IMG/VR virus record: IMGVR_UViG_2671180963_000007
Location: 1 to 11,135 of that record
Reading direction: 5' to 3' (one strand)
Length of the DNA: 11,135 nt
DNA from: a virus
Lineage: Duplodnaviria; Heunggongvirae; Uroviricota; Caudoviricetes
The notes below the pieces were generated by a model, which saw only the letters and a list, made by a program, of their open reading frames with translations, ran no database searches and had not been told where the DNA came from. The position numbers and the translations under genes were made by a program. The first letter of the stretch is position 1. Each line of letters starts with the position of its first letter. Shown here one piece after another: positions 4,701 to 8,473 of the stretch.

Positions 4701-4729
4701 TAAAAATTGGGCACTATAAAAGTGCCCAA
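4701..4729 (-). terminator. Intrinsic terminator downstream of the large NTPase gene
   Basis: Perfect 9-bp inverted repeat TTGGGCACT-ataaa-AGTGCCCAA, 22 nt past the stop at 4751..4753, followed on the minus strand by a T-run (TTTTTA). Not terminator-like on the plus strand. Confidence 0.6.
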
Positions 4730-4750
4730 ACTGTAGAAAAATACATAATG

Positions 4751-7700
4751 CTATGTATCTGAGCCAAACATAGAGCGCCGCCTTGTTATTTTATAATAAG
4801 TGGGATTTTCATTATCCACCTCAAAATCAGAGAAGAAGTGGTTATCTCTTAATGCTGTTAATAAACTTTGATTAGTTGAATCAACTTCAATTTTAGGTTT
4901 GCCTCGCCCCAAAATTTTACTGAACTCCGATAAACCAAGCAGATCAAGATACTCTTTGCAAGTCGTCTTACTCAAATCCTTACCCGGCAACAAAGCGATT
5001 AGCAGTGCTATTTTATTCTGCATATTCAGTCCCTCTGCGACAAACAGGTTTTTTAGTAACGGTTCAGAAACATCATTAGGACTTGCTATCAATGCTGATA
5101 TATCCTGTATTGCTCGACTCAAGATGAGCGACTGAGTAGAGGTTCCCCAAGTTTTATAAGATGACGTCAAGATTAGAAGTTCATCTGGTTTAAAATTATT
5201 TTCTAAAATATAGTCATTAACGACCTGAGAGTAATTCTTACTATAAATAGCCAACGGAGTTTTAACAAACTCGAGTAGCTTAACTTTCAAATCATCATCA
5301 ACTTTCCAAGAAAGTATTGATATAGCCTCATCCAAAATAAAGTTATCAATCGTCATTAATTCAACGTATGCCCTGATATTCTTATGAATATAATAGGAAA
5401 GTTGCTCTGAATAGTTATCTCGTATGAAATTAAGTGGCGCAACATTCATACGAATAATATTTTTATCCACTAATATTTTGAACTTATCACTCGCGATATT
5501 ACTAGCGCTAAAGGATGTTTTACAAATAATATTTAGTGAGCAAATTAATTTTTCATATTTATCATTTGATAAATCATTACAGATAACAATCGATTTAAAT
5601 AATTTACCTTTAAGCTCGTTATCAATATTAATATTTTGAAAATTCAGGTCTACATCAGTTCTATTGATAAATTCGATAAGTGAGTCATCCAGTCCATCAA
5701 CATGTTCAAAATAAGAGACAATATTTTCCTCAGAGCACACTGCTCTATCTTTATCCAACAAAGATGACCATAAAGATTCGCTCTCAACCTCACTCAGAGA
5801 TGTCACGAAAGTTTGCAAAGCGTTTATATACTGGCCTTTTTGTTCATCAGATATTCCCTCATTATTAAGAACGGATAAAACAATGGATTCATCATCCACG
5901 ATTGAACCATCACAACTAGATAAAACCATATCCAGATAGTCCCTAATATGGTTATTAACATAACTAGCCAAGGGAGAATCAGGTTGTGACATCACTAGTG
6001 TATAGTTCTTATGGCGAATATCATCTTCACTATTAAGCGTGTAAACCTTACTCAGCATTAAGGTCAGGTTGGAAAAATTAATATCATAAAGTGAATGCTG
6101 GTAAACCGCATCAAAGAGTACTTTATTTGCGTTTTCAAATTTAATACTGACAAAAGAGACGTTAAGCAACTTAAAACCACTAATTAATTTGTCAACCTTC
6201 GGTTCTGATATTGCTAAATAACCTGCCGAATCAGAGATGTAATCAGTCAGACAATCATCAATATTAATGGCCTCGATGGCGTCATTGGCAGAATAATAAA
6301 ACGTGCCTATAGAGTAGAGTTTAACCCAATCAGCAGAAAATTCACTCTCTGTCAGCGCATAAGAAAAAAACTCAGGCCACTGTGTATTTAATCGATTAAT
6401 GAAGACAGGCTGAGCCCTCTCAGTTTCAAAGTAACCACGAATAAACTCAACTCTTCTATCTTTTCTTAGTTGTTTGAATAAACGTTTTATTAAGTTTACC
6501 TGGGCTGGCGTTTGAAGCAGATAAGCTAATAAATCAAAATTAAGCGCCTCTTCCTGTTCAAAATCCACTTCTCGAAGGCGGGCAACGACCAGCTTGGGGT
6601 TCTTGAGTTGATAAGTGAACTCTTTGCCTTTTTGATCGGTAATGCTGCGTAAAAACATCTTATCAATTCGACTCAGGCTATTTTCATAAAAATAGGTCAT
6701 ATAGTCGGTATAGGTTTCATCAATATAACCATCACGAATAAGGTATTTAAGCAAGTCAAAATGCTCACTGCTTTTTATTTCATTAAAGTCTCTTTCCTCT
6801 CCAATTTCATTGGTATAGGTGAGTTTAAATATTTCATCAATGTTTTCTCTAGTTATTACTTCTTTAAGTCTTTTGTTTCTAGAATCAACCAAACTTTCTC
6901 TTGATCTTGATATAAGCTCATTAATTTCTTCTATTTTACCATTAAATTTATTTTCAACACTTTCTTTTCTAGCCGCCCTTCTCTTTGCTATATCAGCTTT
7001 CTCAGCCTGATTATAGTGAGGATGATTATTATATCTAGATAATTCCTTATCGTATATAGCATCAACCTCCTGACTAGAGTTGAGTATTTCATCATTGATT
7101 GCCTCAATCTCTTTTTTTCTATCTCTATTATCTTTTTCTATTTTCTTTATTTCTTCAATAATAAGGTTGTCTTTTTCACTAAATATGGTATAAACCATAC
7201 CTTGATTAAGTTGCAACTCACTAAAATCTCTTGGGAAAATATTCTTATAGGCAATAATGGCCAACATTTTATTACAGTCAAGTTCTGTCGTGTTTAATTT
7301 GTTATAATAAATTTGAAATTCGTTATAAATATTCTTCAATATTCTCATATCATCAATATATAAAGACATCCCTTGTAGAAATCTTTCATTGAACAACTTG
7401 AGAATACCACCACCATCAAAATGTGTGATAAACTGATCGTAAGAGTTAGAACTATCAACAACAGGAATAACTGGAATGATATAATCAAAGAATTTGGTTC
7501 TATCCTTCGAAATGAAGATATCATCACGAAGCAAGTAAATAAAACGTAACGTCGATTTCTTGTGCCCTGCTGTGTCCCGTTGAATATTAACCAGTCTGTT
7601 AACCTCATGAAGACGTTCAAAGATGTTATTACTATTAAAACGGTCCATGTCTTCAAAAACAATGGCATCAGCATCAACGTTCTCGAAAAGGTACAATACT

Positions 7701-8383
7701 TCATTTAAATATCTATCGAAATAAGACTCGTTACTTTCTTCAAAAATCTCTATTTCATTACCCTGTAAATTTATTTTCTTAAGAACATTACGATTCTTTT
7801 GGGTTTTTATTAACTTGTAAATGAAAATACAAGATAGGATAGTACATATAAACCCACTAATTAAAAGCGTATCGTATTTAGTTGATAATGTAAGTAGTGT
7901 CTTTATATTACCTTCAGATAAAAGTGAAACAAACTTTTCCCACTTATTAAATAGCGTGATATGTAGTATCATGGCGATAAATAACACCGTAAAGATGGTG
8001 TTTATCACAATGTTGTTAGTTTTTATTTTTTTCTTTACTTTAAAATGTGTCTGGGGAATATCATCAGCATTAATTTGGTGAATTAACTGGTTAAGAACTT
8101 TACCTTCTAACGCGGTTTCATTTATATCTTTACTTGGTTCATTAGTTTCAGCTTCCTCAATCGATCTGAAATGAGCAAGTGAGATATGAACAAACTTTAT
8201 ATTTGAATGACTTTTCTTATAGGATTCGATAAGACTACTTTTTCCTGCGCTATATTGCCCTGATATCGCAACATTTTTTAGATCGTTATTGGCAAAAACA
8301 AAATCTATCGCATTTTTATATACACCCAGCTCAACATCGCTGAACGGCGTTAACTTTTGAAATTTATAGCTATCATCACTCAT
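4751..8383 (-). CDS. Large KAP-family (PifA/YobI-like) P-loop NTPase, 1210 aa, with two predicted transmembrane helices between Walker A and Walker B; candidate phage-exclusion protein
   Basis: Uninterrupted 3633-nt ORF. Walker A GQYSAGKSS (aa 42-50), hydrophobic helices NIVINTIFTVLFIAMILHITLF (about aa 124-145) and LLISGFICTILSCIFIYKLI (about aa 173-192), Walker-B-like AIVFEDMD (about aa 240-247). A K/E/R-rich probable coiled coil (about aa 400-520) is followed by ~690 aa with no motif I recognise. Strongly AT-rich: sampled 60-nt lines give about 27-37% G+C against about 50% in int. GAAGGGA Shine-Dalgarno precedes the ATG. Confidence 0.9.
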   Translation of the reverse strand: MSDDSYKFQKLTPFSDVELGVYKNAIDFVFANNDLKNVAISGQYSAGKSSLIESYKKSHSNIKFVHISLAHFRSIEEAETNEPSKDINETALEGKVLNQLIHQINADDIPQTHFKVKKKIKTNNIVINTIFTVLFIAMILHITLFNKWEKFVSLLSEGNIKTLLTLSTKYDTLLISGFICTILSCIFIYKLIKTQKNRNVLKKINLQGNEIEIFEESNESYFDRYLNEVLYLFENVDADAIVFEDMDRFNSNNIFERLHEVNRLVNIQRDTAGHKKSTLRFIYLLRDDIFISKDRTKFFDYIIPVIPVVDSSNSYDQFITHFDGGGILKLFNERFLQGMSLYIDDMRILKNIYNEFQIYYNKLNTTELDCNKMLAIIAYKNIFPRDFSELQLNQGMVYTIFSEKDNLIIEEIKKIEKDNRDRKKEIEAINDEILNSSQEVDAIYDKELSRYNNHPHYNQAEKADIAKRRAARKESVENKFNGKIEEINELISRSRESLVDSRNKRLKEVITRENIDEIFKLTYTNEIGEERDFNEIKSSEHFDLLKYLIRDGYIDETYTDYMTYFYENSLSRIDKMFLRSITDQKGKEFTYQLKNPKLVVARLREVDFEQEEALNFDLLAYLLQTPAQVNLIKRLFKQLRKDRRVEFIRGYFETERAQPVFINRLNTQWPEFFSYALTESEFSADWVKLYSIGTFYYSANDAIEAINIDDCLTDYISDSAGYLAISEPKVDKLISGFKLLNVSFVSIKFENANKVLFDAVYQHSLYDINFSNLTLMLSKVYTLNSEDDIRHKNYTLVMSQPDSPLASYVNNHIRDYLDMVLSSCDGSIVDDESIVLSVLNNEGISDEQKGQYINALQTFVTSLSEVESESLWSSLLDKDRAVCSEENIVSYFEHVDGLDDSLIEFINRTDVDLNFQNINIDNELKGKLFKSIVICNDLSNDKYEKLICSLNIICKTSFSASNIASDKFKILVDKNIIRMNVAPLNFIRDNYSEQLSYYIHKNIRAYVELMTIDNFILDEAISILSWKVDDDLKVKLLEFVKTPLAIYSKNYSQVVNDYILENNFKPDELLILTSSYKTWGTSTQSLILSRAIQDISALIASPNDVSEPLLKNLFVAEGLNMQNKIALLIALLPGKDLSKTTCKEYLDLLGLSEFSKILGRGKPKIEVDSTNQSLLTALRDNHFFSDFEVDNENPTYYKITRRRSMFGSDT

Positions 8384-8464
8384 TGATATCCCTTCCCAAT
8401 CTTCACCGAGAGAGCTGGCTTTCGGAGTTAATCAAACAAAATCATGCAGATAAAATTTCGCCTT

Positions 8465-8473
8465 ATTATAGCA
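8465..8473 (-). promoter_or_regulatory. Candidate extended -10 promoter (TGCTATAAT) for the NTPase gene
   Basis: Minus strand reads TGC-TATAAT (plus 8465..8473) about 80 nt upstream of the ATG. The nearest -35-like hexamer (TTGCAG) is spaced only 10 bp away, so this is an extended -10 call only. Confidence 0.3.

Follow-up and report, generated by a model that had tools for sequence, protein, structure and literature searches.

The DNA analysed here, hereafter the window, is the stretch of 11,135 nucleotides (nt) that makes up positions 1 to 11,135 of the IMG/VR virus record IMGVR_UViG_2671180963_000007 (Caudoviricetes); coordinates refer to the whole window and nucleotide positions to the strand shown. 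A large part of it is taken up by one minus-strand gene, which encodes a transmembrane P-loop NTPase of 1210 amino acids (aa) that belongs to the YobI family and is related to the anti-phage protein Tmn. The gene lies on a cassette of ~4.1 kb within a degraded prophage (Table 1). A preliminary description, made from the letters of the window, had proposed at this place a horizontally acquired, membrane-anchored NTPase of the KAP type acting as a single-gene phage-exclusion system, and the 1210-aa open reading frame (ORF) with its ATG start was found as described there.

The gene is accompanied by signals of its own. About 20 nt past the stop codon lies the terminator-like hairpin that had been claimed, with a 9-bp stem containing five G-C pairs, a 5-nt loop and a following TTTTT, and a Shine-Dalgarno-like GGGAAGGGA stands 5 nt ahead of the ATG. 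The candidate extended −10 element was traced to TGCTATAAT, at 8473..8465 on the minus strand, a perfect match whose function is putative. As no good −35 was found in the sequence upstream of TGCTATAAT, the element was omitted by the consensus promoter scan. The G+C content of the ORF is 32.8% (30% at third codon positions, GC3) compared with 46% in the flanks (3128-4750 and 8384-9856); the low value for the gene had thus been noted correctly, whereas the flanks lie slightly under the ~50% ascribed to them. Judged by its conservation at the sequence level, the ORF is a real gene and not a chance frame, since an identical 1210-aa protein occurs repeatedly in public data and more than 4,600 cluster representatives match it. 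In RefSeq the identical protein is WP_032241071.1, named 'YobI family P-loop NTPase'. The alternative of a spurious ORF arising from AT-rich DNA is ruled out by this deep conservation.

Table 1. Positions of the gene, its domains and signals, the cassette boundaries and the neighbouring genes in the window (AF2, AlphaFold2 model; pLDDT, predicted local distance difference test score).
Feature	Position (nt)	Strand	Basis or remark
Coding sequence of the 1210-aa YobI-family (Tmn-type) transmembrane P-loop NTPase	4751..8383	minus	ATG start; ORF list and translation
YobI-ATPase domain (aa 22-398), including the inserted transmembrane hairpin	7190..8320	minus	PF20693, profile positions 1-363 of 363
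Walker A GQYSAGKSS (aa 42-50)	8234..8260	minus	G47/K48 correspond to G66/K67 of Tmn-25
Transmembrane helix 1 (aa 123-145), predicted	7949..8017	minus	Kyte-Doolittle peak 2.29; AF2 helix aa 122-143
Transmembrane helix 2 (aa 173-192), predicted	7808..7867	minus	Kyte-Doolittle peak 2.16; AF2 helix aa 170-195
Walker B region AIVFEDMD (aa 240-247)	7643..7666	minus	D245/R248 correspond to D276/R279 of Tmn-25
Charged helical stretch, coiled-coil-like 'proximal arm' (aa ~400-505)	6869..7186	minus	AF2 long helices, pLDDT ~80
Conserved linker motif GYIDETYTDYMTYFY (aa 552-566)	6686..6730	minus	Clade alignment
C-terminal all-alpha solenoid, presumed sensor or 'distal arm' (aa ~600-1180)	4844..6586	minus	AF2
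Variable patch in the solenoid (aa ~890-1055)	5217..5717	minus	Dip in identity to the Klebsiella copy
Shine-Dalgarno-like GGGAAGGGA	8389..8397	minus	Read off the sequence
Extended −10 promoter-like element TGCTATAAT	8465..8473	minus	Perfect match, read off the sequence; putative
Intrinsic-terminator-like hairpin and T run	4701..4729	minus	Stem 4729..4707, within the conserved cassette
Mobile cassette, ~4.1 kb (gene, 332 nt upstream, ~150 nt downstream)	4600..8715	minus	Identity to Klebsiella loci
Left boundary hairpin motif GGCCGCTTTGAGCGAAGAGCGGAC	4583..4606	plus	End of homology to prophages without cargo
Right boundary hairpin motif TTCCGCTTCTGGCACAAAGCGGAC	8692..8715	plus	Borders the slot in K-12 Qin and 94 IMG/VR contigs
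nleC, partial (Peptidase_M85), type III secretion effector gene	1..291	minus	
nleB2, type III secretion effector gene	325..1305	minus	SseK/NleB, E 1e-180
Tail-fibre gene with collagen-like repeats	1753..3072	minus	63-68% G+C at ~1800-2600
Deletion junction	~3128		DUF968 cut after ~27 codons and joined upstream of the tail-fibre gene; a small hypothetical gene is next
Complete hok/sok locus	3947..4271	minus	Rfam sok 4097..4271, 105 bits, directly upstream of hokD
Truncated DUF977 gene	beyond the YobI gene, up to 9155/9156	minus	
Deletion junction	9155/9156		DUF977 joined to the C-terminal part of an exonuclease gene
Partial exonuclease gene, DUF4224 gene, integrase gene	past 9155/9156	plus	

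The N-terminal part of the protein is a complete YobI-ATPase domain. The Pfam model PF20693 is matched from end to end at E 8e-123, with 411 bits against a cutoff of 27, and is the sole strong Pfam match. The Pfam KAP_NTPase model (PF07693) gave no match even at E <= 1, and the PADLOC matches were limited to Tmn and a weak LeoA P-loop match, with none to PifA. The relationship to YobI and Tmn put forward in the preliminary description is therefore upheld by the matches to both profiles, whereas the KAP label found no support, and YobI-type, or YobI/Tmn-type, is the better name. In older usage Tmn was itself called a KAP NTPase (Gao 2020; Wu 2023; Yamashita 2025), whereas YobI has since been treated as a family phylogenetically distinct from KAP/PifA (Wu et al. 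2026; PMC13001434). The Walker A motif, with its lysine K48, has exactly the coordinates given for it, and the Walker-B-like segment corresponds to AIVFED (aa 240-245, 7649..7666). Both motifs are invariant across 33-34 members of the clade to which the protein belongs, as are F243, E244, D245, D247 and R248 of the Walker B region in the clade alignment.

Between the two Walker motifs lie the two hydrophobic segments of about 20 residues that had been described. Transmembrane helices were called by Kyte-Doolittle hydropathy and flanking charge together with AF2 helices. Only two 19-aa peaks reach 1.6 or more (aa 122-148 and 170-193), and the maximum elsewhere is 1.26. Within 15 aa, the flanks carry charges of +5/−1 ahead of helix 1 and +5/0 after helix 2, and the 27-residue loop carries +4/−3. 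Since the flanks are rich in K and R, both ends of the hairpin should be cytoplasmic by the positive-inside rule, and therefore the two halves of the NTPase domain would stay together. Hydropathy, charge and predicted helices thus agree on a two-helix membrane hairpin that is inserted between the Walker motifs and has its two ends in the cytoplasm. A P-loop profile match and predicted transmembrane helices are both present in the protein.

The closest characterised relatives of such a protein are the Tmn proteins, which constitute an experimentally studied anti-phage system (Gao et al. 2020; Wu et al. 2023, 2026; Yamashita 2025; PMC13001434, PMC11846954). Tmn is active against T2, P1 and other phages, a phage anti-Tmn protein has been described, and escape mutations fall in nmad5 (Yamashita et al. 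2025; PMC11846954). Synergy of Tmn with Gabija, Septu and PrrC was reported by Wu et al. The best described variant, Tmn-25 from an IncF plasmid of E. coli ECOR25, is a YobI-family NTPase with two transmembrane helices inside its P-loop domain; its 'proximal arm' is a coiled coil and its 'distal arm' an ARM/HEAT-like solenoid, and the protein forms a decamer in an 11.6 Å cryo-EM map (PMC13001434). Its trigger is T2 RIIB, and its defence is abolished by G66/K67 mutation and by D276A/R279A (PMC13001434). For comparison, the plasmid protein WP_064055658.1 was used (IncF plasmid, 1273 aa, 'anti-phage transmembrane ATPase'), which has the Walker A residues G66/K67 as in Tmn-25 and is called Tmn-25-like below. 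No NCBIfam model matches either this protein or that of the window, which means that the RefSeq names have a source other than an NCBIfam hidden Markov model.

The Tmn-25-like protein matches PF20693 at 349 bits and a Fusobacterium homologue at 380 bits, as against the 411 bits of the window protein. By BLASTP, the window protein is 25% identical to the Tmn-25-like protein over aa 4-612 (E 2e-54). A clade profile built from 33 sequences is collinear with the latter over 1124 columns (probability 100%, E 2.5e-59). In hhalign comparisons with the Tmn-25-like protein, the NTPase region gave E 1.5e-53, and aa 400-620 aligned with residues 420-690, the coiled-coil and linker part, at a probability of 96% and E 1e-9. 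All nine NTPase residues that are essential in Tmn-25 are identical in the window protein and invariant in 34 clade members (Tmn-25/window: G66/G47, K67/K48, Y262/Y231, D276/D245, R279/R248, N297/N266, K325/K297, F326/F298 and R374/R347). The likeness to Tmn therefore includes PF20693, a single gene, two transmembrane helices within the P-loop domain, the complete set of essential NTPase residues, carriage by mobile elements and, as far as the model goes, a coiled-coil-like stretch followed by a long alpha-solenoid C-terminus. The differences are a length of 1210 aa as against ~1270, a BLAST alignment that ends at aa ~612, and a location on a chromosomal prophage, unlike the F-type plasmid of Tmn-25.

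The relationship is a distant one. The PADLOC Tmn profile (PDLC02220) is matched at E 2.9e-66 over positions 27-474 and 539-690 of its 1273 positions, the second stretch corresponding to aa ~459-607 of the window protein. When aa 441-1210 were scanned in one piece PADLOC gave no match, although a 180-aa piece of it did match; this is ascribed to the filters of HMMER and carries no weight. The Tmn-25-like protein matches the same profile from end to end (1-1273, 2057 bits), and the Fusobacterium homologue and two metagenomic homologues match over the N-terminal ~450 positions only; the profile thus essentially models the plasmid-type clade. The five Tmn variants tested by Wu et al. (2026) come from clades Ia, Ib and VIII of a scheme running from Ia to IX, and Ia and Ib are close sisters with proteins of ~1270 aa (PMC13001434). 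With 1210 aa and 25% identity, the window protein fits outside Ia/Ib. By all these comparisons it is a divergent member of the YobI/Tmn family, in a separate large clade. Whether this family had been tested was left undecided in the preliminary description: Tmn has been characterised experimentally, but the tested proteins belong to other clades and are ~25% identical. For the B. subtilis YobI protein, the comparison runs through the Pfam model PF20693, the full length of which the window protein spans, and not through the YobI sequence.

The mode of action reported for Tmn-25 also bears on a different mechanism. Tmn-25 acts by ATP hydrolysis, Mg2+ export and plasmolysis, with neither depolarisation nor uptake of propidium iodide (PI) (PMC13001434). 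KAP NTPases including PifA of plasmid F are, like the window protein, membrane-associated P-loop NTPases linked to phage exclusion, and PifA works by depolarisation and leakage, which Tmn does not. The window protein might accordingly act in a PifA-like, abortive manner, such that phage sensing permeabilises or depolarises the inner membrane, nucleotides and ions leak and the cell dies. It is membrane-anchored, the Tmn-25 model has a central ~25 Å pore, the clade is distant from Tmn-25, and Tmn homologues may export other ions according to Wu et al. (2026; PMC13001434). However, the absence of a match to Pfam KAP_NTPase or PADLOC PifA, the identity of the nine essential ATPase residues with those of Tmn-25, and the behaviour of Tmn-25 itself make this mechanism unlikely. 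In overall plan the protein also recalls the Avs/STAND proteins, single large polypeptides that join an NTPase to a repeat or solenoid sensor for a phage protein. It differs from them in being membrane-embedded and in lacking both NACHT/NB-ARC and a separate nuclease or protease effector domain, and Avs/STAND proteins form tetramers as against the decamer reported for Tmn. No NACHT or NB-ARC type domain was matched in Pfam or PADLOC, and an identity as a STAND/Avs protein was rejected on this ground.

Behind the NTPase domain, the charged coiled-coil-like stretch of the preliminary description was recovered: aa 400-520 consist of K, E, R and D to 44.6%, compared with 24-26% elsewhere. In this arm, R544 of Tmn-25 aligns with R472 of the window protein, which is conserved in 31 of 34 clade members. 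Y541 aligns with R469, and Y occupies that place in 19 of the 34; F506 falls in a poorly aligned, unconserved column of the clade alignment. The linker motif GYIDETYTDYMTYFY is invariant or near-invariant in 33 diverse clade members and aligns with GYLSTDYMSYRSIF of the Tmn-25-like protein. An AF2 model of aa 11-1210, computed from a 21-sequence alignment, has a mean pLDDT of 71.6. Its NTPase part displays the expected alternation of strands and helices, with two long helices at the hydrophobic segments, and aa ~600-1180 are predicted as ~45 short helices with a pLDDT of 80-93 and a small beta element at the end. In a Foldseek search against the PDB, the top 50 matches were mostly solenoid proteins of the HEAT/ARM type, among them SF3B1, PP2A-A, CAND1/2, importin-alpha, Pex8, RRP12, Scc2 and CRM1, with a best E of 1.5e-3. 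The solenoid has no match in Pfam or PADLOC, and the PDB searched by sequence with the clade profile gave no relatives. The resemblance would accordingly be one of fold class, not of a specific relative, and it agrees with the sensor arm described for Tmn. The suggestion that the C-terminal region is a sensor gains from this predicted all-alpha solenoid and its analogy to the Tmn arm.

The same arm is where close relatives differ. In the Klebsiella copy, nucleotide identity falls to 89-94% at 5217..5717, compared with 93-100% elsewhere and at least 95% in all but one block. The Serratia and Pectobacterium orthologues are 96-97% identical up to aa 900 and 79% identical over the last ~310 aa. 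Such a mosaic of the distal arm among near-identical orthologues suggests recombination or diversifying selection on the sensor, and a concentration of differences there would be the expected pattern for a specificity determinant in an arms-race gene.

The family around the window protein is large. In an exhaustive HMMER search of 1.84 billion cluster representatives, 4694 matched at E <= 0.001, 2463 of them at E <= 1e-30, and many of the best 150 of the 4694 are full-length at 34-51% identity. These match numbers and full-length matches indicate a clade that is large and keeps its architecture over the whole length. The nearest named relative outside the Enterobacterales is from Congzhengia sp. 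(Clostridia; cluster representative P0271, ~51% identical), and a protein from Fusobacterium vincentii shows 36% identity from end to end; relatives in Clostridia and Fusobacterium fit the low G+C of the gene. Proteins with 92-100% identity are found in E. coli, Shigella, Klebsiella, Serratia, Yersinia, Pectobacterium, Enterobacter and Morganella. Disrupted copies were also observed, one with IS5-family insertions (IS, insertion sequence) and two annotated as two or three ORFs, which suggests frameshifts (hits H50, H65 and H69), and an IMG/VR copy (L026) is truncated to 1123 aa. These copies, together with the loss of the immunity, replication, lysis and structural modules from the surrounding prophage, might indicate that the gene is a non-functional relic kept only by a decaying prophage. 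However, 31 of 32 genomes have an intact 1210-aa frame at 99.8-100% identity, full-length identity is 92-97% across six genera, and none of the catalytic residues has been lost, nor has the promoter-like element or the terminator, so that a relic is a highly improbable explanation.

The gene moves as part of a defined cassette. The stretch 4600..8715 has 96.8% nucleotide identity to 6668..10784 of two Klebsiella loci (L008/L010), in which the flanks are unrelated and the cassette has an IS110 element and a P4-type integrase island beside it. This pattern bears out the proposed horizontal acquisition. The conserved stretch includes TGCTATAAT, which is thus kept in the Klebsiella copy, and the terminator. 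In related E. coli prophages without the gene, homology to the window ends at 4606 and resumes at 8684-8692. A 51%-identical homologue occurs in an ICE (integrative and conjugative element) from gut metagenomes (L011-L013, 7001..10606). No neighbouring gene is conserved across the E. coli prophage, the Klebsiella island and the gut ICE, which is consistent with a stand-alone, single-gene system. The idea of a single-gene anti-phage candidate fits this, along with the membership in the Tmn family and a position among defence genes, by analogy with the tested members. In the gut ICEs, a gene for an AAA_14/DUF4143 ATPase (5778..6977, plus strand) lies 24 nt upstream of the homologue; it is missing in the enterobacterial cassette and may be a lineage-specific partner or a separate system. 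The two Klebsiella islands are 99.8% identical from 6149 on and differ just upstream, where one has an HNH protein and a methyltransferase and the other a sulfate transporter and a carbonic anhydrase; this suggests another variable junction upstream of the Klebsiella cassette.

The place of insertion gives support of an independent kind. The slot between DUF977 and hok/sok holds relBE, ydfV and flxA in K-12 Qin, and three different genes in three other genomes. With the right-hand boundary sequence, 94 IMG/VR contigs were collected (L014-L107), 67 of which have both flanks. Their cargo falls into 27 sequence classes of 0.98-5.9 kb, the YobI cassette being present in six contigs. When ten cargo proteins from nine other classes were compared with PADLOC, eight of them, representing seven of the nine classes, found a match: a CBASS cyclase (SMODS) with a two-transmembrane (2TM) SLATT effector, a retron-type RT-Toprim protein (RT, reverse transcriptase), PD-T7-1, a GmrSD_N/NsnA-like protein, PDC-S06 (AAA_13), PDC-S15 (FRG) and PDC-S33 (RelA_SpoT). 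This slot context supports a defence role independently of the protein itself. The slot resembles the defence hotspots of P2 and P4 prophages (Rousset et al. 2022, PMC9122126; Vassallo et al. 2022) in being a fixed position with many alternative defence systems; unlike those, it lies in Qin/Rac-type lambdoid prophages, extends from the replication-module gene DUF977 to hok/sok and is bounded by two ~24-bp hairpins. An earlier description of this Qin/Rac slot as a hotspot was not found in a limited check of the literature.

It might nevertheless be supposed that the main role of the protein is not defence, and that it serves ion transport or homeostasis, the assembly of a membrane complex, competition between mobile elements or the stabilisation of its carrier element. 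No function for B. subtilis YobI was found in the literature searched, the cassette occurs in prophages, integrative islands and ICEs, it adjoins the hok/sok addiction module, and plasmid-borne tmn has been proposed as an aid to plasmid maintenance against competing mobile elements. With seven of nine alternative cargo classes matching known or candidate defence systems, however, with protection against phages by related Tmn proteins of three clades, and with variation centred on the presumed sensor arm, a non-defence role seems improbable.

The two boundary hairpins, GGCCGCTTTGAGCGAAGAGCGGAC on the left and TTCCGCTTCTGGCACAAAGCGGAC on the right, are imperfect palindromes of ~24 bp in direct orientation, with the stem GTCCGCT/AGCGGAC and a loop of 8-10 nt. 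They are the only matches to the motif in the window, where 0.09 would be expected by chance, and the same hairpins are found at L004 (K-12 Qin) 6975-6996 and in L005, L006 and L008. When the cargo classes are compared, the 5' part of the left site stays constant and its 3' arm is cargo-specific; in the right site the 5' arm is cargo-specific and the 3' part constant. Since constant and cargo-specific arms meet there, the points of exchange are placed inside the hairpins. As no T-run follows them, they are not typical terminators. Compensatory changes between the half-sites at the cassette ends fit in one class and not in most, which lends no support to a structure-selected site, and a scan of IMG/VR with the generic pattern GTCCGCT-N8-11-AGCGGAC was unspecific, returning many unrelated contigs. 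The hairpins are candidate recombinase sites, short homologies for relaxed homologous recombination, or RNA signals, in a layout reminiscent of cassette ends.

On this evidence, the locus holds an intact, divergent gene of the YobI/Tmn NTPase type, carried by a self-contained 4.1-kb cassette in a defence hotspot of a degraded prophage and probably serving in Tmn-type defence. The family, the catalytic residues, the hairpin, the charged stretch with the confidently predicted solenoid, the cassette-like horizontal spread and the location among defence genes are shown by the analysis, and the core of the preliminary interpretation is supported by profiles, residue conservation, hydropathy, predicted structure, genomic context and literature. 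By analogy with Tmn-25, the protein would oligomerise in the inner membrane, and its cytosolic arms would bind an early phage protein. Such binding may turn on ATP hydrolysis; collapse of ATP and export of ions (Mg2+) would then bring about an arrest resembling plasmolysis, in which phages can neither develop nor spread. The trigger, and hence the range of phages, probably differs from that of the tested Tmn proteins, because the sensor arm is nearly unalignable with theirs and is the most variable part among close orthologues.

Several observations weigh against this explanation. The identity to tested Tmn is only 25%, and of the three proximal-arm residues that are essential in Tmn-25, two (F506 and Y541) lack conservation. 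Taken by themselves, the C-terminal 590 aa aligned with the Tmn-25-like protein over 355 collinear columns at a probability of 81% and E 1.2e-5, in a comparison of the clade profile with a single sequence, as a search with the Tmn-25-like C-terminus gave only four fragment homologues. Coverage of the PADLOC Tmn profile is 35% by the best stretch, 47% when summed and 52% as a span, and the criterion of Wu et al. (2026) is a coverage of at least 50% (PMC13001434). Confidence in the AF2 model is low for the NTPase part, with a pLDDT of 40-65, and Foldseek gave no match in the PDB at E <= 0.001. The Mg2+-export and plasmolysis mechanism comes from one preprint with an 11.6 Å map and from a different clade, and a published phage test of the window protein or its clade was not found in the literature searched. 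The gene is also rare, being present in 32 of 5426 complete E. coli genomes and always on the chromosome; several of its copies carry disrupting IS elements or seem to be broken up into more than one ORF, and neither 50,697 sequenced phage genomes nor PHROGs contain the gene.

The rest of the window identifies it, by gene content and order, as a heavily deleted lambdoid prophage of the Qin/Rac type, from which the immunity, replication, lysis and structural modules have been lost. Two deletion junctions mark the prophage as a remnant, and the one at 9155/9156 has cost it ~6 kb with immunity and replication genes that locus L001 has. Because the immunity and early regions are gone, the YobI-family gene must use its own promoter here. 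The exact arrangement of the window, over at least 80% of its length, was found in no complete E. coli genome of the collection. In K-12 Qin (L004 5120..5634) homology ends just past the hokD start, where relE abuts, and therefore K-12 Qin holds relBE where the window has sok and the YobI cassette. The effector genes nleC and nleB2 stand at the end of the prophage with 33% G+C and are 99.6% identical to those of O103:H2, O45:H2 and related strains. In composition the tail-fibre gene is the reverse of its neighbours. Two long antisense ORFs on the plus strand (1429..2376 and 1983..2843) have no family match and are probably by-products of high G+C.

Summarizing, the significance of the finding lies in the place of Tmn among the few membrane-integrated single-protein phage sensors for which a mechanism has been proposed, and whose specificity is thought to reside in a variable solenoid arm. 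A natural, intact variant that shares the catalytic core but has an essentially different arm is a tool for trigger mapping and arm swaps, and it could serve to test whether plasmolysis and Mg2+ export hold for the family as a whole. As a putative phage-resistance determinant spread at 92-100% identity over the enterobacteria named above, the gene is also relevant to phage therapy, and tools that rely on the plasmid-type Tmn profile may under-call it. The slot offers a compact place for mining further defence genes, and the hotspot with its hairpin-bounded cassette architecture adds to the interest. More tentatively, and as a possibility rather than an expectation, the protein may stand for a large Tmn-like lineage, with more than 150 cluster representatives matching it over the full length, that profile annotation would half-see, with a sensor arm unrelated in sequence that may answer to another trigger and possibly give another membrane or ion output. 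Separately, recombination within the two ~24-bp hairpins may move the cassette from promoter to terminator, so that the slot, as a hitherto undescribed Qin/Rac defence hotspot, would serve for integron-like exchange.

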